The notes under the pieces are model-generated. The model was not told the DNA's origin. It made no database searches and worked only from the letters and a program-made list of their open reading frames with translations. Below, in pieces: positions 413 through 13,139 of a stretch of DNA of 31,747 nucleotides. The DNA is from an uncultured Candidatus Peribacteria bacterium (lineage in GTDB: Bacteria; Patescibacteriota; Gracilibacteria; UBA1369; JABINC01), in the NCBI GenBank assembly GCA_964358905.1, contig CAYHQD010000002.1, positions 1-31,747 of the forward strand, in the 5' to 3' direction. The translations under genes were made by a program, and so were the position numbers. Position 1 is the first letter of the stretch. Each line of letters starts with the position of its first letter.

Positions 413-1093
413 TCAACTCTTATTTGCGCATACATTTGTTTTGCTCATGTATTCAAGGCATACCAAGTACACCTCCCGACTGCGATCACGTACGGCATCC
501 GGTTTTGCGATTTTCAATGTTTTGAAATGTTTTTTTACCTCTCGATAAAATTCATCGAAATCCGCTCCCTGGAAAATTTTCATCACCAGGTTGCCATGCG
601 GTTTTAACCATTTTTTTGCAATTTCCATCACCTGCATGCACAGTTCCACCGATTTCCACTGATCTATGTCTTTGACTCCCGAGGTGGAAGGCGCGAGGTC
701 GGAGAGGATTACATCAAATCTGTGCCCCACGCGCGTGAGCGCACCGTTCCCGTTCCCATTTTCACTTTCCGCAATTTTTTTGAAAAACGCTTTTACCGAT
801 TCTTCAACTTTCGTATCATCAGAGATATCGCATACCGCAGTTTCCACATTTGGCAGTGAAAGTTCTATCTCCTGTAAGTCCAATCCCAACGCTTGACTCT
901 TCGGCCCGATTACTTTTGACGTATACTGCAAGAAACTTCCCGGCGCCGCCCCGAGGTCGAGTACCATATCTCCCGGTCGCATAACCCGAAGCTTCTCCTG
1001 AATTTCTTGTAACTTAAATGCACTTCTCGCCTTGTATCCTTCCTCTTTCGCCTTCTTAAAATACCTATCCTGCGGGTTGTACGGTTTTGGCAT
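413..1093 (-). CDS. rlmE: 23S rRNA Um2552 2'-O-methyltransferase RlmE (FtsJ/RrmJ)
   Basis: [20 protein letters not shown] (SAM binding), [22 protein letters not shown]; K-D-K-E catalytic tetrad present. Confidence 0.93.
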
Positions 1094-1266
1094 ATATGTG
1101 TATACTTTTCGTTGGATACACTAATCCAATGATGTCATGGTTGGCAAGGACTCGAAAGCAATAGTTGATTTTAAAGGCAGATCTTTTGTGAACGTTTCTT
1201 TGCTTTTTCTATTTTTTAAGCCGGGTCGTGTACATTCGTAATGTAGTAACAATGAGCGCTATTGTA

Positions 1267-1779
1267 TCATGTAGTGTGCCCATATTTACTCCAAACTGCG
1301 TTCATAAAATGTGTTTGCTCGCCCGTGATGTGTTCCATTAAGGCGTCAATCCTGAAATAGTCCGTTTCTCCAATATCCTCTTTGAGGGAAAGGATTAAGG
1401 ATTTTAACGCCTCTTCATCTTCTGTCGAGTACTCAATCATTTCATTTGGATTGCTCATGACAACGGTTTGATGTTTTTTTAGATATTTTGACGAATATCG
1501 GTCGCCAAGAATCTCACCAAGAATACGCAACGTTATTTGACCTTTCTCCGGATGACTCTTGAACTCTTCATGTGCAATGTCGCGGGCGCGTTGAGCAAGT
1601 GCAACGACCTCTGCGCTCGAAAGCATGAGCGTTCTCATATGAAAATTCTCTATCAACGCCTCCTCCTCCTGCCACTCCATTTTTTTTTCAGAAGATGTGG
1701 GCTCTATGTCCTCATACGAGGAAATACGAATGTACTGACGTAGCAAGTCATCGCCGATTGATTTGTGATTTGAAATCAT
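1267..1779 (-). CDS. Hypothetical acidic cytoplasmic protein, candidate immunity protein for the upstream toxin-like gene
   Basis: 170-aa ORF starting 15 bp after the stop of the 952-aa ORF, same strand. No signal peptide and no family I recognise. The immunity role is inferred from position. Confidence 0.6.
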   Translation of the reverse strand: MISNHKSIGDDLLRQYIRISSYEDIEPTSSEKKMEWQEEEALIENFHMRTLMLSSAEVVALAQRARDIAHEEFKSHPEKGQITLRILGEILGDRYSSKYLKKHQTVVMSNPNEMIEYSTEDEEALKSLILSLKEDIGETDYFRIDALMEHITGEQTHFMNAVWSKYGHTT

Positions 1780-1794
1780 AATATATAGGTTGTC

Positions 1795-4653
1795 TTATTG
1801 TGCAAAATTGTGTGGTGTGAATTCCGGAAGCTCAAGATCAAATTGCTTCCGAAAGGCCTCGCGTACAGCCTGTTGCCCTGTGATATCATTCGGTTTTGGT
1901 TGATAATGTCCGGACCAGTTATCCCAAAATTCCACCGATTTACCATCGTTACCGATTTTAATACGCCCAGCATAATCTACATTATCTCCTTTAGTTATGA
2001 AGGAGTGACCTTTACCGAACTTGAGTTTTCCATTCTTAAGGATAAAGTCAACCTCTTTAGGAGGGGTTAGTCGTTTGCCGTTAACAAAGTATCGTAATTT
2101 GCCATCGAATGTTTTTTGAAGATTAAAGATTTTGCCGATTTCATCGATAGGTAAAAGATTGTTGTACTTACCGACATTCGTTATAGCTTTGGTAATATCT
2201 TCAGCAGGTGCGGCGGTTTTTGATTTTGAAAAAACGTTCTTTATTAAGTTCAATATCCCTTCCGATTTCTTTACTGTGTTGACGCCTTCTACGACCTTTG
2301 CTCCTTTTAGCATCGCATTAAGTTCTCCGAGACCGACAAATAATGTCGCCACATCAAGTCCAATCATTGTTGCAAATTGTGTGGGGTTACTGGCTTTTAC
2401 CCATTCTGGATCTATAGGTCCTTGGAGATTTTCCAGATTAAACATTACTTTCAATTGTTCGTAGCCGGTCATACTTTCTTTATCAAATCCAAATGTTTGT
2501 TCGAGCGACTTTGGAGTAAGTACTCTTCCGAGTAACTTGATTCCGCTTTCTCCAAGCGAGGAAAGGTCGAGGTATGTTTTAGGATTTGTAGCCAACTCGA
2601 TTATTCCAAGAACCCACTTACCTGTGCCAATCGCTATATCTTTTTTCGTTTCTTCGGACATCATCATCAGTCCGATACTAGGGTTGGCGATTGCTACACC
2701 GGCTATGATCAACCCTTTTGCCGGCACTTTCACTTCATCGTATACCGTGCGTGCGACCTGTTCGGTGACTTCGACTTTGCTTGTGACATATTCAACGACA
2801 TCTTTGAACTTTTCCACGGCGACCTCATAGGCCTCTACAACGGGAGTGATGACTTTCTCCGTCACTTGTCGGTAGACGGTTTTTGCCACGTCTTTGGATA
2901 CTTCTACGATTTTGTCGACGATGCGCTCGGCTTTTTCATAGACGGTTTCGGCGACTTCTTTCACGACGGGCACGACTTTCTCCACGATATTGACCACGTT
3001 TTCATAAATGGTGCGCGGTACATCAACGACTTCTTTCACTTTCTCGGTGACATAATCGGTGACTTGCCTTATGACCGGTATCACTTTGTCAACCACACGA
3101 GTGGCCGTATTCCAGACCGTTTCGGCAACCTGCTTTATTTTCTGCACGGGCTTCTCGACCATGCGGTATGCGGTTTCTTTCACTTTGTCATAGACGGTTT
3201 TCACGACGGGCACGACTTTTCCAACCCATTCGGTGACGGTGTCGTAGACGGTGCGCGGTATTTTTTCCACCCATTCTTTCACGTGGCGGACTTTTTCGAA
3301 GATAGTGCGAGGTATACGTTTGATCTCGGTGTATGTTTCGTTGACAAATCTCTTTACCTTATCCGTTACCCAGTGTCCCGCTTCCACCAGTTGCTGGTAT
3401 GAACGTGATACCCATCCGTATATCGGTTCGATTATTTTTCTCTTTGTCCAACCGACGACTTTGGTTACCCATTTCGTTGTGGTGTTTTTTAACCAGTTCC
3501 ATCCTTTCTTGATCCAGCTTGTGGAGGTTTCCGCTACGGTTTGATATATCGGCACATTTTCATATCTTACGCTATCTCCCGTCTTTCCCCATACTCTTTC
3601 GGTGACGGTGCGATAAGTGTCGCCCACCCAGCGGCGTGCGTCTTCAAATTTTTCAACCAACCTTGTTTTCGTCTCCTTGACTTCGTCCCACACGGTAGAT
3701 GCTTTCTCTTCGAACCAAACTTTGCTTCGTTCGACGTTGTCGTACACCGTGCGTGCCACTTCTTTGCTTTGTTTCATTTTCTCCGTGACGTACTCGGTGA
3801 CCTTGCGAGGGACTTCGCGCACAACTTCGTAAGCTTCCTTCACCGGTTCCATGACCCACTCTGCCACATCTCGTGTGACCTTGGTCGCGTACTGATATGC
3901 CTCCTCAACTTTGGTGGTGACGTAATCGGTGACCTGACGTACCACCGGAACAACTCTATCCACGAAACGCTCCACCTTATCAAAAACCGTTTTTGCCACT
4001 TGCGAGGTTTCTTCAAACTGCTTCGTGACGTATTCGGTGACTTGTTTAGTTTTGGTGACGGCTTTGTCATATGTTTCAACTATCGGTCGTACTACATTTT
4101 CCTTTACGGTTTCGTAAACCGTTTCCGCCACCTGTCTGGTGACGTCTATCACTTTATCCACTGTTCTTTGCGCTGTTTCATATACGGTGTAAGGAACACT
4201 TTTTACCATTTCCACCGTCTTATCTATCATGTTGGTGACATTTGCATAGATGGTTCTCGGGATTTTTACAATTTCATATTCCGTAGTCGGCTTTGCAAGA
4301 GGTGCAGGAGTGCTGCTTAGCGCTTTTGATGCACCGAGAAGACCAACCGCGCTCAAAACCGTCATCCATGCGGGGAGATTACTCTTCTTCTCATCGGTGG
4401 ATGTTTGCGTATTTTTCGGATCGGGCAGGGTGCTAAGCTCTGGCTTCGCCTTTTCAGTGGACTTCAAAAATTGCACTCTCTCCACAGTACCTTTATTCAT
4501 ACTTTTCTCTTCGTATCTGCGAGTGGCCTGCATGCGGGATTGAGGCGGAGAAAAATCGGCGTACGCAATAAAGCTGATGGTGTGATACCAAACCACGACC
4601 ACCAATGCGAGAGGTAAAAGAAAATAAATCGACTTCATGTTCTTCTTAACCAT
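1795..4653 (-). CDS. Membrane-anchored repetitive-stalk protein with a polymorphic-toxin-like C-terminal domain
   Basis: N-terminal hydrophobic segment, about 540 aa of V/T/E/K-rich periodic repeats, a Gly/Ala-rich hydrophobic pre-toxin-like region, and a C-terminal domain with GH...YAG...WDNWSGHYQP. The CDS is solid; the toxin call is inference. Confidence 0.7.
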   Translation of the reverse strand: MVKKNMKSIYFLLPLALVVVVWYHTISFIAYADFSPPQSRMQATRRYEEKSMNKGTVERVQFLKSTEKAKPELSTLPDPKNTQTSTDEKKSNLPAWMTVLSAVGLLGASKALSSTPAPLAKPTTEYEIVKIPRTIYANVTNMIDKTVEMVKSVPYTVYETAQRTVDKVIDVTRQVAETVYETVKENVVRPIVETYDKAVTKTKQVTEYVTKQFEETSQVAKTVFDKVERFVDRVVPVVRQVTDYVTTKVEEAYQYATKVTRDVAEWVMEPVKEAYEVVREVPRKVTEYVTEKMKQSKEVARTVYDNVERSKVWFEEKASTVWDEVKETKTRLVEKFEDARRWVGDTYRTVTERVWGKTGDSVRYENVPIYQTVAETSTSWIKKGWNWLKNTTTKWVTKVVGWTKRKIIEPIYGWVSRSYQQLVEAGHWVTDKVKRFVNETYTEIKRIPRTIFEKVRHVKEWVEKIPRTVYDTVTEWVGKVVPVVKTVYDKVKETAYRMVEKPVQKIKQVAETVWNTATRVVDKVIPVIRQVTDYVTEKVKEVVDVPRTIYENVVNIVEKVVPVVKEVAETVYEKAERIVDKIVEVSKDVAKTVYRQVTEKVITPVVEAYEVAVEKFKDVVEYVTSKVEVTEQVARTVYDEVKVPAKGLIIAGVAIANPSIGLMMMSEETKKDIAIGTGKWVLGIIELATNPKTYLDLSSLGESGIKLLGRVLTPKSLEQTFGFDKESMTGYEQLKVMFNLENLQGPIDPEWVKASNPTQFATMIGLDVATLFVGLGELNAMLKGAKVVEGVNTVKKSEGILNLIKNVFSKSKTAAPAEDITKAITNVGKYNNLLPIDEIGKIFNLQKTFDGKLRYFVNGKRLTPPKEVDFILKNGKLKFGKGHSFITKGDNVDYAGRIKIGNDGKSVEFWDNWSGHYQPKPNDITGQQAVREAFRKQFDLELPEFTPHNFAQ

Positions 4654-4745
4654 GGGAGAGGGGGGTTAGAAGATCTTATCACCTCGAATCTACAACTTAT
4701 TTCCAGTCCTGCGCAAGGAGGAGAAGTTGCGAAGGGTAACCTTTT

Positions 4746-4794: not shown

Positions 4795-5553
4795 TCATTT
4801 ATCCAGCACAATGCGAAGGATACCCGGGACGAGATAGACAATAAGGAGTGCGGGAAATATGAAGAACACGAGCGGAATGGAGATTTTGACCGATGCGGTT
4901 CTGCTGATTTCCTCGGCTTTTTGTCTCCTTCTTGTCTTGATGAGATTGGATTGAATCTTGAGCGTTTGTGCAATCGAGACGCCGAGACGTTTGGCTTGTT
5001 TGATCGCGCTGACAAATTTTGAAAAATCTTCTATGCCGAGGCGAAACGCCATATTGTCCAATGCCTCTTCCTGACTGATGCCGAACGTGATTTCTTTTTT
5101 TGTGCGGGCGACCTCTTTGCCGAGTTCTCCCTTGGTTCTCTCGCTGACGTATTCAAACGCATTGATGAAATTCATGCCGGATTCGATGGCCATCGTCAGT
5201 GCATCTATGAAGTCGGATATTTGCAATTCCATCTTTTCGCGCTTGATCCTGATGATGCGTTCGAAGATGGTTTCAGGCGCCAGACAGATGATTGCGTCCA
5301 GTGCGAAATTGAGGAGCAGTCCTTTTAGAAAAAGTCCAGTGAGTAAAATATAGGTGAGAAAAAACAGGAAACTTAAATGACATAAAAATTGCTTAATTCT
5401 CATAATCTCTTCGTCCTTTAATTCTATGTGGTCGAGTATTTCGAGTTGTTTTTGCAATTTGTCGCGTTTCGTTAATTTTCTCACAAACCATCCGGGTGAA
5501 GTGAAACGCATCTTTGGTATGCGGTATAGTATTTTTGTCAGGGTTTTGCTCAT
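4795..5553 (-). CDS. tadC: Tad pilus inner-membrane platform protein TadC (T2SS F family)
   Basis: QISDFIDALTMAIESGMNF...ALDNMAFR...QAKRLGVSIAQTLKIQS...AEEISRTASVKISIPLVFFIFPALLIV; position after tadB. Confidence 0.9.
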   Translation of the reverse strand: MSKTLTKILYRIPKMRFTSPGWFVRKLTKRDKLQKQLEILDHIELKDEEIMRIKQFLCHLSFLFFLTYILLTGLFLKGLLLNFALDAIICLAPETIFERIIRIKREKMELQISDFIDALTMAIESGMNFINAFEYVSERTKGELGKEVARTKKEITFGISQEEALDNMAFRLGIEDFSKFVSAIKQAKRLGVSIAQTLKIQSNLIKTRRRQKAEEISRTASVKISIPLVFFIFPALLIVYLVPGILRIVLDK

Positions 5554-6267
5554 TTATAATTTGACGTGAGTGATATTCCAAATCAGTTTAAAACCGATGA
5601 TTTCCAATGCGATGGCGAGTACGAGGAAAAATTGGCCGATGGTCGTATTATAAAGTACGTCGACATATTCGCGGCTGATCATGGTGAACATAAAAAGAGA
5701 GATGGGAAAGAGCATGGCGACTATGACGCCCGAGACGCGTCCTTGCGCGGTGAGCACTTTTAATTCGTTTTCCAGTTTCATTCTTTCGCTTGTGATATAT
5801 GCGATGTTCTCCAGCATTTCGACCAGATTTCCTCCTATCTTGTGTTGCATCAGGATACCGTCTACAACGAGATCTATGTCGCGGTGATTTGCGTTGTTTC
5901 TCAAACGGGTGAGTACTGCATCGGTTGAAAAATTATATTCGATTTCTTTTACCGCGTTACGCAGGTATGTGCCTATTGGGTCGACCGATTCGCTTGCGAC
6001 AAATATGAATGCTTGTTCAAACGAATAGCCAGCTTTCATGGCGTTTGCTATGGCGCGTATGGTTTCGGGAATCTGTTGCGTGAGGCGGTCGTATCTTTTC
6101 ATCGCGAGGTACTTCCCCAGAACGAAGTGCGAAATAGGGAGCGCGACTCCGATGCATAGTGCAAAGATAAAACCAACTCCTTTGAGTAAGAGGATGAGGA
6201 AGATGATGAGCCCCGACACGGTCGGGGCGAATTTATGCCGACTTAGTTTTCTTAAAAAAAGAAGCAT
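5554..6267 (-). CDS. tadB: Tad pilus platform protein TadB (T2SS F family)
   Basis: QIPETIRAIANAMKAGYSF, QHKIGGNLVEMLENIA, LKVLTAQGRVSG, two C-terminal TM segments. Confidence 0.9.
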   Translation of the reverse strand: MLLFLRKLSRHKFAPTVSGLIIFLILLLKGVGFIFALCIGVALPISHFVLGKYLAMKRYDRLTQQIPETIRAIANAMKAGYSFEQAFIFVASESVDPIGTYLRNAVKEIEYNFSTDAVLTRLRNNANHRDIDLVVDGILMQHKIGGNLVEMLENIAYITSERMKLENELKVLTAQGRVSGVIVAMLFPISLFMFTMISREYVDVLYNTTIGQFFLVLAIALEIIGFKLIWNITHVKL

Positions 6268-7477
6268 TCACATCAAGGTTATAATCTTTGAATTTCGAAA
6301 CCATCTGCGGTACGTGTCCCGTAAGTTCGCATGCGTTCTTTGCCTTGGAATATAGAAATATATCATTTACCTCATACTCCGCAGTATGGAAATTCTTCTC
6401 TATCTCGCTGATATGGGTAATGCGTCTTTTACCGTCTACGTCGCGTTCTTGCTGAATGATGATATCTATACTGCTGATGATCTGATTCCTGATCGCCGGC
6501 AGTGGTAGGTCGAGATTTGCCATCAGCACCATCGTCTCCGTACGCAGGAGAGCTTCACGCGGCGCATTTGCATGGACGGTCGTGAGTGAGCCGTTGTGAC
6601 CTGTATTCATCGCCTGCAACATATCGAGTGCTTCCGCCCCACGTATTTCCCCGACGATAATTCTATCCGGGCGCATCCTGAGTGCGTTTTTTAGGAGCGA
6701 CCTGATGGGGATATCACCTTTGCCTTCGATATTTGCCGCTTTACTTTCCAGACGGATGAGGTGTGGGAGGGTAAGTCGAATTTCCGCTGCATCCTCGATG
6801 GTGATCACACGTTGGTCTTTCGGAATCAAGTTGGCGCAGGCGTTTAGTAGGCTCGTTTTGCCCGATCCCGTACCTCCGGAGATGATGATATTTTGTTTTG
6901 CCACGACGGCGTAGTAGATAAACTCCGCCATTTTTTCCGTGAGTGAACCGAATTTCAGCAGGTCATCCATCTGCAAGGATTTTTGCGGGAATTTTCTGAT
7001 GGTAAGAATCGGCCCAGTCAGACTTAAGGGAGGAATGATTGCATTCACGCGTGAACCATCCGGTAGTCTCGCATCTACGAGTGGTGACGATTCATCTATA
7101 CGTCTTCCGATCTTGCTTACGATCCTGTTGATGACTTGCAGTAGGGTGTCGTCCGATTGAAATTTCACTTCGGTTTTTTCCAACTTACCGCATCTCTCTA
7201 TAAAGATATCGTTTTTACCGTTGACCATGATCTCCGTCACATCGGGATCTCGCATCAGTCCTTCGATAGGTCCAAGCCCCGTGATTTTGTCTATGAGGTT
7301 GCCGATGATTTGTTCCTTGATCAAAGTCGGCAAAATCTCTCCGCTTTCCTCGATCAGTCGTTTCGCCTCTCGATACAGATTTTGAGGATCCAATGTATCG
7401 GTTCTCTTGATCGAGTGAAAAAGCGCTTTATGCAAACGTTCTTCGATGGCGTGAATTTTTTGCGATGAGGTGAGCAT
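6233..7477 (-). CDS. tadA: Tad pilus assembly ATPase TadA/CpaF
   Basis: GLGPIEGLMRDPDVTEIMVNG, Walker A GGTGSGKT, ITIEDAAE, ALRMRPDRIIVGEIRG, MNTGHNGSLTTVHAN. Start placed at ATG 7477, which overlaps the cpaE stop (TAATG), rather than the track's 7570. Confidence 0.95.
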   Translation of the reverse strand: MLTSSQKIHAIEERLHKALFHSIKRTDTLDPQNLYREAKRLIEESGEILPTLIKEQIIGNLIDKITGLGPIEGLMRDPDVTEIMVNGKNDIFIERCGKLEKTEVKFQSDDTLLQVINRIVSKIGRRIDESSPLVDARLPDGSRVNAIIPPLSLTGPILTIRKFPQKSLQMDDLLKFGSLTEKMAEFIYYAVVAKQNIIISGGTGSGKTSLLNACANLIPKDQRVITIEDAAEIRLTLPHLIRLESKAANIEGKGDIPIRSLLKNALRMRPDRIIVGEIRGAEALDMLQAMNTGHNGSLTTVHANAPREALLRTETMVLMANLDLPLPAIRNQIISSIDIIIQQERDVDGKRRITHISEIEKNFHTAEYEVNDIFLYSKAKNACELTGHVPQMVSKFKDYNLDVNASFFKKTKSA

Positions 7478-8202
7478 TAGGCGAGGAGTTGATCCAATAA
7501 TTCTCCTGTTTCTTTTGCTAATTTTGATTTTGTGAGTGCGTAGGGAGTGGCGAAAGCAATGGCATCCCACGCGCTTTCGTTGTCATAAGATAGCATATGA
7601 ATGAGAGGTGCACTGAAGTATGCTTGAGCCTCTTTTTTGCCGATGGAGGGAGGGCGTTGATTGATGACCACGTGTCGCCCGATTTGAGGGAATTCCTTTT
7701 CCAGCATTTCGCTAAGTTGATTCGTACGGACGATGCTTTGCGGATCGAGATTTGAAACGGTTACCACCTTATCGCTCTGTTTTACTACAGCTCGGTACTC
7801 TTGAAATTCTTTTCCCAAATCTATCACTATCGTGGTGAAGAGCTGTAAAGCGGCATTGATCAAGAGTGACAGATGTGTTTCCGTGATGCTTGCGGTCTGC
7901 TCCGGGTCCATCGGTGAAAGCAAAATCGCCATATTGTTTTTTCGATATGCGAGCGTCTGGAATGTTTGAAACAGATCTTCTTTGTGTTCCAAAAAATCAA
8001 TGACGTGCGCGAAGTTTTTCTCGGTGCTTACATCAAAAAAGGTATGCGCATCCGGATACTTCGTCAGTTGGATAAAGAGGGTAGGGTGTCGCTGTGCGGC
8101 GATACATGCCAGATTGCTCGATATCAGCGTCTGCCCCGTCCCGCCCTTCGCAGATAAGAACGTGATGACTTGTTTAAATTGTGCCGTGCGAGGTTGGTTC
8201 AT
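7477..8202 (-). CDS. cpaE: CpaE/TadZ-like MinD/ParA-family pilus localisation ATPase
   Basis: VITFLSAKGGTGQT (deviant, degenerate Walker A), IVIDLG, HVVINQ; lies between cpaB and tadA. Confidence 0.75.
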   Translation of the reverse strand: MNQPRTAQFKQVITFLSAKGGTGQTLISSNLACIAAQRHPTLFIQLTKYPDAHTFFDVSTEKNFAHVIDFLEHKEDLFQTFQTLAYRKNNMAILLSPMDPEQTASITETHLSLLINAALQLFTTIVIDLGKEFQEYRAVVKQSDKVVTVSNLDPQSIVRTNQLSEMLEKEFPQIGRHVVINQRPPSIGKKEAQAYFSAPLIHMLSYDNESAWDAIAFATPYALTKSKLAKETGELLDQLLA

Positions 8203-8204
8203 AT

Positions 8205-8891
8205 TTATTGTGTCAGTACTACGGTGATTAGCTGTTCTTTCGCTTTTGCATAGAGAATATCGCGGCTTTCATCTTCGGTTACTTTTAAGGTGAGGTAGTT
8301 GGAAGAAGTGTTTTTCCCGTCCTGGACATAATCTATCACTTCAGCCGCGCTTACGAGGAAGAGAGTATCATCTATACCTCTTTGAGGGTTGCTTATGAGA
8401 ATGCTCACGCGATCACCTTTTGTCACTTGCGGAAATTTGCTTTCGAGCCAGGATGCATCTATCGTCAATGCCACTTCATTCTCGCCGAGTTCGACTGCCA
8501 TCGAGTCATTTTGTATGAATATTTTCACATCTTCCGCGGTGATGATGGCATTCGCGGGGATGGTCTGTACGGCGAAGAGACCTATCAACTCTTCATTGGT
8601 TGAGAAGTAGCCGCTCGGCAATTGTTGGCGTGCGAATTTTCCTTGAGTCAGATGTTTTTTTTCGATCTGTGTACCCTTTGAGATTTCGTCCGTTGCAACG
8701 ATGACATGTGTGAGCGCTTTTTCTTGGTCGGCTTTCGCATTGTACAAAAGCATCCAGATCAGGGCGAATACCGCGATGACGGATCCAATGATAATCCGTT
8801 TTTTAAAACGTTTTTTTTTATATAGCTCCCAGCTCAACGTGGTCTTCGGAGATGCATTCTTTAGCTGTTTTTGAAATTCCTTGTATTCCAT
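8205..8891 (-). CDS. cpaB: Flp pilus assembly protein CpaB/RcpC (SAF domain)
   Basis: N-terminal TM, SAF-like VIVATDEISKGTQI, RcpC-like VALTID...VTKGDRVSIL. Confidence 0.85.
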   Translation of the reverse strand: MEYKEFQKQLKNASPKTTLSWELYKKKRFKKRIIIGSVIAVFALIWMLLYNAKADQEKALTHVIVATDEISKGTQIEKKHLTQGKFARQQLPSGYFSTNEELIGLFAVQTIPANAIITAEDVKIFIQNDSMAVELGENEVALTIDASWLESKFPQVTKGDRVSILISNPQRGIDDTLFLVSAAEVIDYVQDGKNTSSNYLTLKVTEDESRDILYAKAKEQLITVVLTQ

Positions 8892-9418
8892 CAGTCTATG
8901 TTTATGGATGACATTGATTCCGCCGAGATGAATTGGGTTTCGATACCCATCATGGAGCCGAAGTAGAGCTCATGCGTAGTTCCGAGTTCGATTTTCATAG
9001 AGAGAGTATCATCTCCAACCGTATAATTGTAGGGGAATGTGATATCTTGGGGAGAAAGCGCCAAATTATCATAATTGTTTAAATCTATATAATTTTCCGC
9101 CATTTGCGATGGTCCAGTGCTGGCTGCGAGTACCGCCCGATCATCATTGCTCAGAGCGTCCACAATGTTTTCAGGCGCTTCGAACTCGGGATCTTGCGCC
9201 GCCATAGCCTCCACGATATCCACTATCTCATCTCCCGACACCGATATGCCCGCATTGACTGCGCTGTCCGCAATTGATTGCAGTTGAGCTTTTTTGACGA
9301 ATATCATGCCGCCATCCACTACGAGTCCGGTCAGTATAAGCACGGATGGGACCATTATCATGGTGAGTCCCATTGCGTTTCCCTTGTTCCCGCCGATGTA
9401 TTTTCGCAGGTATGTCAT
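8891..9418 (-). CDS. tadG: TadG-like pseudopilin (Tad N-terminal domain)
   Basis: KG-NAMGLTMIMVP...GLVVDGG...QLQSIADSAVNAG matches the Tad/TadG N-terminal pattern; TGATG overlap with the cpaB start. Confidence 0.75.
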   Translation of the reverse strand: MTYLRKYIGGNKGNAMGLTMIMVPSVLILTGLVVDGGMIFVKKAQLQSIADSAVNAGISVSGDEIVDIVEAMAAQDPEFEAPENIVDALSNDDRAVLAASTGPSQMAENYIDLNNYDNLALSPQDITFPYNYTVGDDTLSMKIELGTTHELYFGSMMGIETQFISAESMSSINID

Positions 9419-9428
9419 TGGTTTGGTG

Positions 9429-9824
9429 CTAAATTTCGATTCGAGCTACCGCCTGGGATGATAAGACGATGTTCTCGGATATGATATTTAGGATGATGAG
9501 AGGGAGGTCGTATTCTATCAGTACGGTGAGCTCGTCGCCTCGGTTTCTGCTCGTTTCATCTTCGGGGATGATTTGAATGGTGATTCGGTCACCGTTTTCA
9601 TCTATGAATTGTGTGGCGGTGCCGATGGCGCTTTCTATCTGTGCGTTTTCATTTGTCAATGCGCCGACGCGGGCGCCTTCTCTCGATGCGTAGGTTATCG
9701 TCTGTTGTACAGAGAGGGCGATACCGATTTCATATATGCCAAAGAGCAAAATTATTATAAGGGGAAACACGACCGCGAATTCCACCAGCGCTTGGGCGCG
9801 ATTTTGTGCAAATGACCGTAGCAT
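9429..9824 (-). CDS. tadE: TadE-like pseudopilin
   Basis: RAQALVEFAVVFPLIIILLFGIYEIG...ASREGARVG. Confidence 0.9.
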   Translation of the reverse strand: MLRSFAQNRAQALVEFAVVFPLIIILLFGIYEIGIALSVQQTITYASREGARVGALTNENAQIESAIGTATQFIDENGDRITIQIIPEDETSRNRGDELTVLIEYDLPLIILNIISENIVLSSQAVARIEI

Positions 9825-9840
9825 ATACGAACGTGCTAAA

Positions 9841-10011
9841 CTAGAACGAATCGACTATGTCTTGGAACGCACCTTGAATCGTAGTTCCAAGCAATGTAAC
9901 CACTGCGACCACAACTACGGCTATCAAAGCAAGTATAAGTGCGTATTCGGACATTGCCTGTGCTTTTTTCTCTGTGAGCGCGAGATATATCTTGCAAAGT
10001 TGCAGTTTCAT
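9841..10011 (-). CDS. flp: Flp (type IVb/IVc) major pilin, 56 aa
   Basis: Not in the ORF track. Manual translation: MKLQLCKIYLALTEKKAQAMSEYALILALIAVVVVAVVTLLGTTIQGAFQDIVDSF*. Has the Flp motif E(+5)Y(+6) and a hydrophobic helix, 16 bp upstream of tadE. Confidence 0.92.
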   Translation of the reverse strand: MKLQLCKIYLALTEKKAQAMSEYALILALIAVVVVAVVTLLGTTIQGAFQDIVDSF

Positions 10012-10052
10012 ACAAGTGTGGGGTAAGTGGTAATAAATGGTAACAAACTTTT

Positions 10053-10328
10053 TTACAGCACGGTTTCCATCACGGTAACGGTTTTCTTTGGGCCGATGGC
10101 TATGCGCCAGGGTTTCAGCCTTTCTATTCTTTTTATTTCTCTGTCGTCTTTATCCAGGAATTGTATCTCGAGGTCGTATTTTACTCCGAATGTGTGGATC
10201 ATCCTGCAATTCCGGAATGCCATTCTTGTCCCTTTTACGGGATTTTTCAAGCCTTTTACTCCTCGCAGACGAGTGAGAAATGTATCTGCAATTATGACTT
10301 TTTCGTTATCCATATTCATACATATCAT
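10053..10328 (-). CDS. DUF192-family protein
   Basis: IADTFLTRLRG...MIHTFGVKYDLEIQFLDKD...ME pattern; first gene of the tad run. Confidence 0.75.
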   Translation of the reverse strand: MICMNMDNEKVIIADTFLTRLRGVKGLKNPVKGTRMAFRNCRMIHTFGVKYDLEIQFLDKDDREIKRIERLKPWRIAIGPKKTVTVMETVL

Positions 10329-10496: not shown

Positions 10497-13139
10497 ATGT
10501 ATTTGGTAAAAACCATATTCGCCGGCCTCTGGGATTTTATTCTCACGTATCCGCTCTATGCGCTCGGTATTTTAGTGCTTGCAGTATTGCTCTTTAGGCT
10601 CGCATTGCGTGCGCTTCGTTATACGTATGCCCGTGTGCATCAGAAAAATCTGATATTCATGCAAGTGATGCTTCCACGCAAGGATTCCAAGATAGATAAG
10701 GAAAAAGAAACGGAGAAGGACTTTCGTGAAAAAATTGCCGTGATGGAGCAGTTTTATCGCAATATCCATGAAATTCGCGAGTTGAATCTTTGGAATCTCT
10801 GGAAATCCTGGTTGGTGAATCACGATATGGTGTCGTTTGAATTGGTGCTAAAGGAAAAGGAATTGTATTTCTACGTCGTGACCTATCCGTATTTCCGTAC
10901 CCTCGTCGAGAAACAGATTACGTCCTATTATCCCGATGCCGATATCACCTATGTGAAACCATACGAATTGGGTAAGAAAGGGGATAGCGTAAAGGCGTTT
11001 TATCTCTATGAAAAGCGCGATTATTGGTTTCCTGTGAAGACATACAAGACTATAGAAAATGATCCGCTCAATGATATTACGAATGTATTTTCAAAGTTGG
11101 ATGATGCTGATTTCGCTTCAATCCAGATCGTAATCAATTCGATAGGCAAGGGATGGAATAAACGCGCTGAGATGGAAGGTGCTCTTATGTTTAAGGGTAA
11201 AAAGAACACCTACGGATCGGGTGTTACCAATTTTCTCGGACGTATTCCCATCATAGGATTTTTGAATAGTATCATCGTGGGGGCAATTCTCGGTCCCGAA
11301 GATGTGAAAGGTTCCACCAATGAGCCCGGTGCGAAAGGCGGTGACTCATTTCAGCGTATGCTTCAAGCCCGTGAAGAGGTGGCAAAACATATTGGAGAGA
11401 AAGCTCTCTCGGTCGGATTTGAAGTGGGGATTCGTCTGGTGGCTTCTTCCCCTACGAAAGAGCACACCGAAGATATTTTGAATAATCTGGTTATCGCATT
11501 CAACCTTTTCAATTCACCGGAGATGAATTACTTCCAGAATCGTCGTATCGTGCCTCTGGATTTTCTCAGTACGCCGGCGCTTCTGCACGGATATCACTTG
11601 CGCTTGCCCAAGCATGGAAATAAAACATCCATTATGGTGCCGGAGGAGTTGGCATCAATGTACCATTTTCCGGTGAGCAAATACAATTACTCGCCGACGA
11701 TTAAGTGGCTCCCGTATACCGTCATACCCGCGCCGACCGATTTGCCGAAAGAAGGGATTTTACTCGGACACAACGTCTATCGCGGTGAGCAGAGAGAAAT
11801 TCATATCACCCGAAATGATCGCACGCGTCACATGTATATCATCGGTAAATCCGGTACCGGTAAATCGGCGCTGATCAGCTACATGGCACGTCAAGATATC
11901 GCCAATGGCGAAGGTGTCTGTGTCGTAGATCCACACGGCGATCTCATCGAAGATATTTTGCACTATATTCCCAAGGAGCGGGCGAAAGATGTCATCGTAT
12001 TTAATCCCGCGGATTTGGAGCGCCCGATGGGGCTCAATATTCTCGAAGCGGATACGCCCGTGCAGATGGATCTCGCATCCTCTCAGGCTACGGAAATTTT
12101 TATCAAACTTTTCGGCGACGAAATTTTCGGTCCGCGTATTCAGCATTATTTCCGCAACGCGTGTCTGACTCTCATGGAAGATAAGGAAGAGGGTGCGACG
12201 CTCGTCGATGTGCCCCGTATGTTCACCGATGACGCATTTATGCGCTACAAAGTTTCTAAGATCAAAAACCCCGTCGTGAAATCATTCTGGGTACATGAAT
12301 ATGCGCACACTGCTGATCGTGAACGCCAGGAAATGATTCCGTATTTCTCCGCAAAATTCGGTCCGTTTATCACGAATTCGATCATGCGCAATACGATAGG
12401 TCAGACGAAATCGGCGTTTGATTTCCGCGAGGTGATGGATAAGCAAAAAATCCTGCTCATCAATCTTTCGAAAGGTAAGATTGGCGATCTCAATACCCAG
12501 CTTCTCGGTCTCGTGCTCGTAGCGCGTATTCAGATGGCGGCTATGGCCCGTGCGGATATGCCGGAGAATGAGCGAAAGGATTTCTACCTCTATGTGGATG
12601 AGTTTCAGAATTTTGCGACAGATTCGTTTTGCGAGATTCTTTCCGAGGCCAGAAAGTACCATCTCGCGCTGATCATGGCCCATCAGTATATCAACCAGTT
12701 GACGACGACCAAATTCGGTACCACTTCTTCAAAAATCCGCGATGCCGTCTTCGGTAACGTGGGTACGATGATGTCGTTCAAAGTCGGTGCGGAAGATGGC
12801 GAGTATCTGGCGAAAGAATACGCTCCCGTGCTCTCCGAACAGGACATCATCGGTATTGCGAAATTCAAGGCATATATCAAACTGAATATCGACAACACGA
12901 CCTCACGTCCATTTTCCCTCCATACGGTGTGGGATACCAAAGGTAAAAATGCAAAAATAGCTGAAATCGTCACACAATACTCCCGTATGAAATATGGGCG
13001 TAAAAAAGAATTCGTCGATCAGGAAATTTCCGCACGCATCGGAATTGATTTGGCCGATACGACTCCAGTGCAACTCGGTGAAATAGGCAAGCCGCCGGGA
13101 AGTGAAAATCAGCAATTACCACCCAATGAATCAAATTGA
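10497..13139 (+). CDS. VirD4/TraG/HerA-FtsK superfamily membrane-anchored ATPase
   Basis: N-terminal TM; HMYIIGKSGTGKS (Walker A), CVVDPHGDL, YLYVDEFQNF (Walker B), LSEARKYHLALIMAHQY, AVFGNVGT. Confidence 0.85.
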   Translation: MYLVKTIFAGLWDFILTYPLYALGILVLAVLLFRLALRALRYTYARVHQKNLIFMQVMLPRKDSKIDKEKETEKDFREKIAVMEQFYRNIHEIRELNLWNLWKSWLVNHDMVSFELVLKEKELYFYVVTYPYFRTLVEKQITSYYPDADITYVKPYELGKKGDSVKAFYLYEKRDYWFPVKTYKTIENDPLNDITNVFSKLDDADFASIQIVINSIGKGWNKRAEMEGALMFKGKKNTYGSGVTNFLGRIPIIGFLNSIIVGAILGPEDVKGSTNEPGAKGGDSFQRMLQAREEVAKHIGEKALSVGFEVGIRLVASSPTKEHTEDILNNLVIAFNLFNSPEMNYFQNRRIVPLDFLSTPALLHGYHLRLPKHGNKTSIMVPEELASMYHFPVSKYNYSPTIKWLPYTVIPAPTDLPKEGILLGHNVYRGEQREIHITRNDRTRHMYIIGKSGTGKSALISYMARQDIANGEGVCVVDPHGDLIEDILHYIPKERAKDVIVFNPADLERPMGLNILEADTPVQMDLASSQATEIFIKLFGDEIFGPRIQHYFRNACLTLMEDKEEGATLVDVPRMFTDDAFMRYKVSKIKNPVVKSFWVHEYAHTADRERQEMIPYFSAKFGPFITNSIMRNTIGQTKSAFDFREVMDKQKILLINLSKGKIGDLNTQLLGLVLVARIQMAAMARADMPENERKDFYLYVDEFQNFATDSFCEILSEARKYHLALIMAHQYINQLTTTKFGTTSSKIRDAVFGNVGTMMSFKVGAEDGEYLAKEYAPVLSEQDIIGIAKFKAYIKLNIDNTTSRPFSLHTVWDTKGKNAKIAEIVTQYSRMKYGRKKEFVDQEISARIGIDLADTTPVQLGEIGKPPGSENQQLPPNESN

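Follow-up and report, generated by a model that had tools for sequence, protein, structure and literature searches.

Whether a bacterium of the candidate phyla radiation (CPR) carries a toxin beside its pilus genes is the question raised by two adjoining open reading frames (ORFs) in an uncultured Candidatus Peribacteria bacterium. The window, i.e. the whole stretch of 31,747 nucleotides that was analysed, is contig C2 of a genome of 1.25 Mb (92% complete, 163 contigs). A previous reading of the letters alone (hereafter the sequence-only reading) had placed a 952-aa ORF, P0001, directly downstream of a Tad pilus operon and a 170-aa ORF, P0002, behind it, and had taken the two for a polymorphic toxin and its immunity protein; the coordinates, the gene order and the 15-bp gap between the two ORFs, which lie on the same strand, were borne out (Table 1). 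We propose that P0001 and P0002 very probably form a polymorphic toxin/immunity pair on an undescribed helical carrier linked to Tad genes. This reading is based on the presence of the C-terminal tip of P0001 on other toxin carriers, on a cassette swap between relatives and on a downstream ORF that co-varies with the tip. These points are directly supported, as is the linkage of the carrier to Flp and Tad genes.

The C-terminal tip domain

The C-terminus of P0001 belongs to an unnamed domain family. When 1.84 billion representative proteins were searched exhaustively by phmmer with the last 170 residues, 106 representatives came up at E<1e-3, with lengths of 60-3052 aa, and a domain profile built from alignment A3 placed the tip no more than 60 residues from the C-terminus in 159 of 165 carriers. 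Among the 44 longer carriers, RHS repeats were found in seven and LXG in three, PT-HINT, RHS core and the PAAR-like DUF4280 in two each, and WXG100 and the VgrG-type Phage_GPD in one each; the sequence-only reading had linked such tips to Rhs-type toxins, and here it was right. Database names for the carriers are only "hypothetical" or "RHS repeat-associated". On a Listeria innocua plasmid (NZ_CP095722), one operon holds DUF3130, a small ORF, an LXG protein ending in the tip and a 133-aa ORF. In Aliikangiella, a tip-only gene and a 191-aa acidic ORF stand in an array adjoining Toxin-deaminase and Imm3. The tip is a genuine toxin cargo of several secretion-system carriers. It was also considered as a YD-repeat artefact, with phmmer marking seven stretches in a 3052-aa protein; this was rejected, as that protein is not retrieved with the A3 profile, and the profile does not cross-match YD repeats.

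In the pattern D..GH..AG..N.SGH..P, the D, H, AG and N.SGH..P are invariant or nearly so across 25-62 diverse carriers, in agreement with the motif H...AG...NxSGHYxP of the sequence-only reading. In P0001 numbering the conserved residues are D869, H883, A895-G896, N912, S914-G915-H916 and P919, of which H883, A895, N912, S914 and H916 are invariant in A3 and D869, G896, G915 and P919 nearly invariant in A3 or in alignment A4. The tip had been described as a basic domain of ~120 aa; the domain stands, and it is only mildly basic, with a net charge of +4 (residues 831-952). The window's genome encodes a single tip (profile match E 1.3e-43).

The tip was modelled confidently by AlphaFold2 (AF2), with a predicted local distance difference test score (pLDDT) of 90.2 and a predicted template-modelling score (pTM) of 0.82; in the model, seven strands make up a beta structure, a short helix follows the GH motif and there is a long helix at the C-terminus. 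The tip alone gave no match in Pfam, NCBIfam, PADLOC or PHROGs, nor in PDB sequences with either a single-sequence query or the A3 profile. Foldseek searches of the model were uninformative: the best PDB match reached only E 0.2 with a TMq of 0.27, and the best BFVD matches were unnamed (E 1.6e-3, root-mean-square deviation 9 Å). The conserved Asp, two His, Asn and Ser of the tip point to an enzyme. A nuclease or RNase is possible and is our leading, tentative guess, based on the two invariant His, the acidic partner without export signal and one carrier with Nuc_N; Nuc_N precedes the tip in just 1 of 62 short carriers, and the nuclease lead is weak.

The tip also occurs in further settings. 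In a genome of the same class in which TGA encodes glycine (code 25), the minus strand of locus L015 (G168:C3:1-3303) has a tandem array of tip-only genes (ORFs at 2353-2787, 1902-2372, 1423-1788 and 843-1430), in which tip genes of 144 and 121 aa are each followed by an acidic ORF of 156 or 195 aa, with 11-12 in-frame TGA codons per tip. The database proteins P0037, P0045, P0057 and P0069 have W at positions where G is conserved in the family, suggesting that TGA was read as W in the translation of code-25 genes. In another CPR genome (L018, G064:C1, 6732-9461, plus strand), the tip lies inside a 909-aa secreted protein, with a G.GEL...G.K motif similar to that of the P0001 junction before it and an unexplained 240-aa extension after it; on one side of this gene lies that of a PilB-type ATPase and on the other are two genes for type IV pilins.

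Cassette exchange and the downstream gene

Eight relatives of P0001 were found among 5.8 billion proteins, one named relative being from a Candidatus Peregrinibacteria metagenome-assembled genome. The closest, P0006, is 82% identical in the stalk and shows no similarity after residue ~645. Its pre-toxin module is unrelated to that of P0001 and its C-terminus is Tas1-like, aligning over 135 residues (E 2.3e-4) to Tas1, a (p)ppApp synthetase toxin of type VI secretion (T6SS; 6ox6_A); Pfam RelA_SpoT gave no score on this tip. Comparison of the window with the P0006 locus (L003) by blastn revealed 75-77% identity over 4804-10012, 2722-4673 and 453-1098 and 83% over 2-330, with nothing shared in between over the cassette and sharp breaks at 2722 and 1098. 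In the more distant L004, with flanks of ~65%, the cassette is kept. The gene order Tad-toxin-FtsJ-fumarase is conserved in three genomes.

At least two types of pre-toxin module were found, type A in P0001 and P0007 and type B in P0006 and P0008. P0008 combines module B with a window-type tip, showing that module and tip assort independently, and the fragment P0013 has stalk repeats, a third module type and a window-type tip. In P0009 and P0012 the same junction motif is followed by other C-terminal domains, which gave no Pfam or PDB match. The polymorphic toxin layout named in the sequence-only reading was thus upheld, the C-termini of P0006, P0009 and P0012 differing from that of P0001. In the sense of Zhang, Aravind et al. 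(2012), polymorphic toxins are recognised here by C-termini that differ between otherwise homologous proteins, by a tip domain common to carriers of other secretion routes, and by a gene directly downstream, predicted to be protective, that co-varies with the toxin domain.

This downstream gene encodes P0002, a candidate immunity protein. It has a net charge of -12 and no hydrophobic N-terminus, as expected from the earlier description of an acidic ORF without signal peptide; since P0002 has no export signal, the target of the tip is probably cytoplasmic. No match to P0002 was found in Pfam, NCBIfam, PADLOC or PHROGs, and the window's genome has a single P0002 beside its single tip. Homologs lie directly 3' of a same-type tip in L004 (14-bp gap, 41% identity, tip 61%), in L006 (1-nt overlap, 35% identity, tip 56%) and in L021 (85% identity, tip 85%). 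The same tip followed by a P0002 homolog was seen in 4 of 5 contexts (the window, L004, L006 and L021), and the two proteins diverge together. In L003, where the tip is different, the position of P0002 is taken by unrelated 101-aa and RDD-family ORFs. The claim that the 170-aa ORF is tied to the tip holds in that it changes and co-diverges with the tip; it does not hold for one homolog, P0004, that occurs without a tip, formally the independent occurrence that the sequence-only reading had listed as counter-evidence.

Other candidate partners were seen at the loci with different tips. In L003 (12981-13730, plus strand), two ORFs come after the Tas1-like tip of P0006, one of 101 aa and one for a 145-aa RDD-family membrane protein, and either could be the immunity protein of that tip. 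In L008 (10070-10426, plus strand), a DUF7674 ORF lies downstream of P0012, a Magasanikbacteria stalk protein, and DUF7674 may be an immunity family.

The carrier, its Tad linkage and alternative explanations

From its sequence, the carrier is predicted to consist of four parts: a hydrophobic N-terminus, a helical stalk, a pre-toxin module with a junction motif, and an exchangeable C-terminal toxin. The N-terminus had been called a membrane anchor. The hydrophobic segment of residues 6-29 is present and is followed by a conserved A-Y-A/D-F site (A-x-A-like), with an (A/F)-A-D-F-S motif common to P0001, P0006 and P0007; it may be a signal peptide for Sec, which would be cleaved, or else a signal anchor. 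No known trafficking domain was found. The stalk (~520 aa) had been noted as repetitive, and this was confirmed with a periodicity of 22 residues. It is rich in V, T, E and K (V 21.6%) and is built of 22-residue repeats and some 18-residue variants, often with Pro first, and autocorrelation of identities gave 0.246 for lag 22, against ~0.10 expected by composition, and 0.205 for lag 44. Five long alpha-helices were seen over residues 131-640 in the full-length AF2 model, which is unreliable. Library matches of the stalk are all generic (Phasin_2, ApoLp-III, the ZorA tail and many tape-measure families). Phasin_2 (PF09361) scored 35.2 bits against a cut-off of 24.9 over only residues 204-298 of the 527-residue repeat stalk, and we read it as amphipathic-helix similarity.

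The type A module is helical with Gly-rich hydrophobic stretches and ends in IGLDVATLFVGLGELNAMLKGAK, and the hydrophobic pre-toxin-like segment of the sequence-only reading was located at residues 760-778. The motif (Y/M)(I/V)G(L/F)D(V/I)...G.G also stands ahead of the variable part in P0006, P0007, P0008 and P0009, and P0015 has a G.GEL...G.K stretch similar to the P0001 junction motif. Searches of full-length P0001 with Pfam and NCBIfam revealed no RHS, LXG, FHA or MafB domain, consistent with the earlier statement that the scaffold is none of these types.

Table 1. Features of the P0001/P0002 locus (positions in the window; residues refer to P0001).
Feature	Positions	Strand	Basis or remark
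P0001, 952-aa ORF	1795-4653	minus	ORF call and translation
N-terminal hydrophobic segment, residues 6-29	4567-4638	minus	Kyte-Doolittle 19-residue mean (KD19) 2.1
Second, weaker hydrophobic Gly/Ala-rich segment, residues 93-113, just ahead of stalk	4315-4377	minus	KD19 maximum 1.26
Stalk, residues 119-645	2719-4299	minus	Autocorrelation; low-confidence AF2 secondary structure
Pre-toxin module type A, residues 646-790, first part of variable cassette	2284-2718	minus	P0007 shares the module, 54% identity
Junction motif IGLDVATLFVGLGELNAMLKGAK, residues 763-787	2293-2367	minus	Motif (Y/M)(I/V)G(L/F)D(V/I)...G.G
Toxin tip, residues 833-952 (~120 aa), unnamed domain family	1798-2157	minus	phmmer, alignments A3 and A4, AF2
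P0002, 170-aa acidic ORF, candidate cognate immunity protein	1267-1779	minus	Homologs 3' of same-type tips
Variable cassette (pre-toxin module, tip, predicted immunity gene) between conserved flanks	1099-2721		blastn against L003
RlmE/FtsJ	413-1093		Pfam/NCBIfam; downstream of P0002
Tad operon (DUF192, Flp, TadE, TadE/G-like, CpaB, CpaE-like ATPase, TadA, TadB, TadC)	4795-10328	minus	Pfam, NCBIfam, Flp alignment A8; directly upstream of P0001
DUF192-like ORF	10053-10328	minus	Pfam/NCBIfam
Flp pilin	9841-10011	minus	Flp_Fap 37.4 bits
TadC	4795-5553	minus	Pfam/NCBIfam; last Tad gene before P0001

The stalk relatives with a known context all (8 of 8) adjoin genuine Flp genes or lie within Tad operons, in five arrangements. 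The stalk protein follows tadC in the window, L003 and L004/L005; P0008 comes after Flp and three ORFs in L006; P0009 is followed by two ORFs and Flp-Tad in L007; P0012 comes after Flp in L008; and the tip-less P0010 and P0011 lie between flp and tadE in L010 and L027. This pattern suggests that the stalk protein began as a Tad-associated component and gained toxins in some lineages. In the whole genome, Flp and prepilin peptidase are encoded once each, the peptidase on a different contig. No secretin was found at the Tad locus with Pfam and NCBIfam, which also identified a fumarase-type lyase gene downstream of the toxin/immunity pair. Promoter and terminator scans of the locus were no better than chance. 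Divergent from the Tad operon, at 10497-13139 on the plus strand, lies the gene of a membrane ATPase of 880 aa, which contains TrwB_AAD_bind, DUF87 and TraG-D_C domains and resembles VirD4/TraG coupling proteins; this arrangement is kept in L003 and L004, and the ATPase could be a partner of the pilus or the toxin system.

A paralogue of 1051 aa or more, truncated where the contig ends, was found in the same genome (L019, G000:C96, 3-3155, minus strand). It has an N-terminal module common with P0001 (E 4.6e-8), short stalk repeats and a C-terminal M23 peptidoglycan peptidase, and its equivalent of residues 93-113 of P0001 is strongly hydrophobic (KD19 2.08). It is possibly another effector on a P0001-type chassis, and its peptidase argues for an extracytoplasmic fate of the carrier.

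We infer a role for the Tad pilus, surface display and contact dependence, the pilus role from the gene linkage in all eight contexts. The carrier would be exported from a monoderm CPR cell and displayed beyond its wall, the Tad pilus would give either the cell contact or the export route for intoxicating a neighbour or host, and P0002 would neutralise the tip in the producer cell. A stronger proposal, that the helical-stalk proteins serve the CPR Tad (Flp) pilus as dedicated substrates or appendages and that Tad is an unrecognised delivery route for polymorphic toxins, seems doubtful to us. If it were true, the Tad route would perhaps also serve a peptidoglycan hydrolase, and an ultrasmall episymbiont would intoxicate or breach its hosts or rivals on pilus-mediated contact.

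Several points weigh against the toxin/immunity reading. The tip has no recognisable fold or family, hence its activity is a guess. The ORFs 3' of the tip in other lineages, though acidic, have no relation to P0002: hhalign revealed no relation of the P0002 family to the downstream ORFs in G168 and Listeria or to the C-terminal extension in G064, and BLASTP none of P0002 to the downstream ORF of Aliikangiella. P0004, a 73%-identical P0002 homolog (L022, 716-1216, plus strand), has no tip near it; its neighbours on a contig of 1.5 kb are an acidic ORF of 103 aa, which is unrelated, and the gene of a DEAD-box helicase. P0004 resembles an orphan immunity gene, which would fit. The carrier is rare: among other sampled genomes, it was found in none of 400 from the phylum and in none of 200 from the class. 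No Tad genes were found in the 1.8 kb visible upstream of the M23 paralogue. The full-length AF2 model, with a pLDDT of 42.8, is too uncertain for the architecture, and the second hydrophobic segment together with the Lys-rich stalk could put the stalk in the cytoplasm, leaving the topology ambiguous.

P0001 might instead serve the Tad pilus mainly as a structural or accessory component, for example a length ruler, an anchor or an adhesin, with a C-terminal domain for adhesion or pilus biology. The tip-less P0010 and P0011 inside Tad operons agree with such a role, as does the likeness of the stalk to ruler-type helical proteins (tape-measure, ZorA tail), and it may be the ancestral role of the stalk. 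For P0001 itself we consider it unlikely, because toxins of the Rhs, LXG, PAAR-like and VgrG kinds carry the same tip, which also occurs in toxin/immunity arrays, because a Tas1-like toxin replaces it at the same locus, and because a structural role leaves the co-varying downstream ORF unexplained.

Matches of the stalk gave rise to two other explanations. ZorA-tail matches, down to E 2.5e-9, together with a possible cytoplasmic-stalk topology and an acidic partner without export signal, would suit an intracellular toxin-antitoxin or anti-phage defence module (Zorya-like, abortive infection) instead of an exported weapon. However, these matches are confined to the helical tail and reach 19-23 bits in NCBIfam against cut-offs of 250-500, neither a MotA/ExbB domain nor ZorB was found, Tad genes and FtsJ are the neighbours, and PADLOC gives no match for the tip or P0002. 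Tip swapping and a tip family on carriers of T6SS and the type VII secretion system (T7SS) are typical of secreted toxins, and we regard the defence module as highly improbable. That the gene is left over from a tape-measure protein of a phage or tailocin is a reading to which we give almost no credence: the 21 PHROG families that match the stalk, mostly tape-measure and down to E 3.7e-15, are scattered over unrelated families and match the repeat region only, as expected from generic helical-repeat similarity. The paralogue does carry an M23 peptidase, as many tape-measure proteins do, but no phage genes lie nearby, no match was found in the phage collection, and the gene order from Tad to fumarase is conserved in three genomes. 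A polymorphic toxin/immunity pair remains the preferred reading of P0001 and P0002.

Novelty and comparison with known systems

Polymorphic toxins have been catalogued for the type V secretion system (T5SS), T6SS, T7SS, Sec/lipoprotein, phage-like and outer-membrane-exchange routes. Little is known of the ways in which CPR bacteria, living attached to other cells, harm or exploit these partners. Our literature search revealed no polymorphic toxin linked to Tad pili and no description of a P0001-type carrier. The principle of polymorphic toxin and immunity is known, and the assignment of the pair to it is well supported; the rare Tad-linked helical carrier is new, and the toxin domain is unnamed. 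The locus offers a concrete toxin/immunity pair open to testing, the tip is an unnamed toxin domain of many lineages and several secretion-system carriers with a confident model and no known fold, and the conserved gene link between toxin carrier and pilus machine makes effector delivery by Tad systems directly testable.

Similar to P0001, the LXG toxins of type VIIb secretion (e.g. Listeria innocua NZ_CP095722) have the same tip family, a small downstream ORF and a helical N-terminal carrier, whereas P0001 has no LXG/WXG domain, DUF3130-type partners or T7SS genes, its carrier being a stalk of 22-residue repeats with a hydrophobic N-terminus. Rhs/YD-repeat toxins (T6SS or Sec-dependent) share the tip family as cargo, a motif at the start of the variable C-terminus, a downstream immunity gene and orphan cassettes; P0001 differs by the lack of RHS/YD repeats, a PAAR domain and the Rhs core DPxGL motif. 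The likeness to CdiA/CdiI lies in the layout of a putative export signal, a long filament, a pre-toxin demarcation motif, a variable C-terminus and a candidate immunity gene, and in the cassette exchanged between close relatives. Unlike CdiA, P0001 has no FHA repeats, TPS domain, CdiB or VENN motif, its stalk is alpha-helical and not a beta-helix, and its cell probably has no outer membrane. The likeness to Tas1 of P. aeruginosa (PDB 6OX6) belongs to the P0006 tip and not to P0001. In Myxococcus xanthus, the Tad-like Kil apparatus is required for contact-dependent prey killing, and its toxin was stated as still undiscovered (PMC8460266). There, Tad-type machinery is associated with killing on contact; here, a toxin gene lies beside or in the Tad operon, and contact killing would be a prediction from the genes. 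If Tad delivery of P0001-type proteins were true, they would represent the type of effector that has yet to be found for Tad-like contact killing in Myxococcus.

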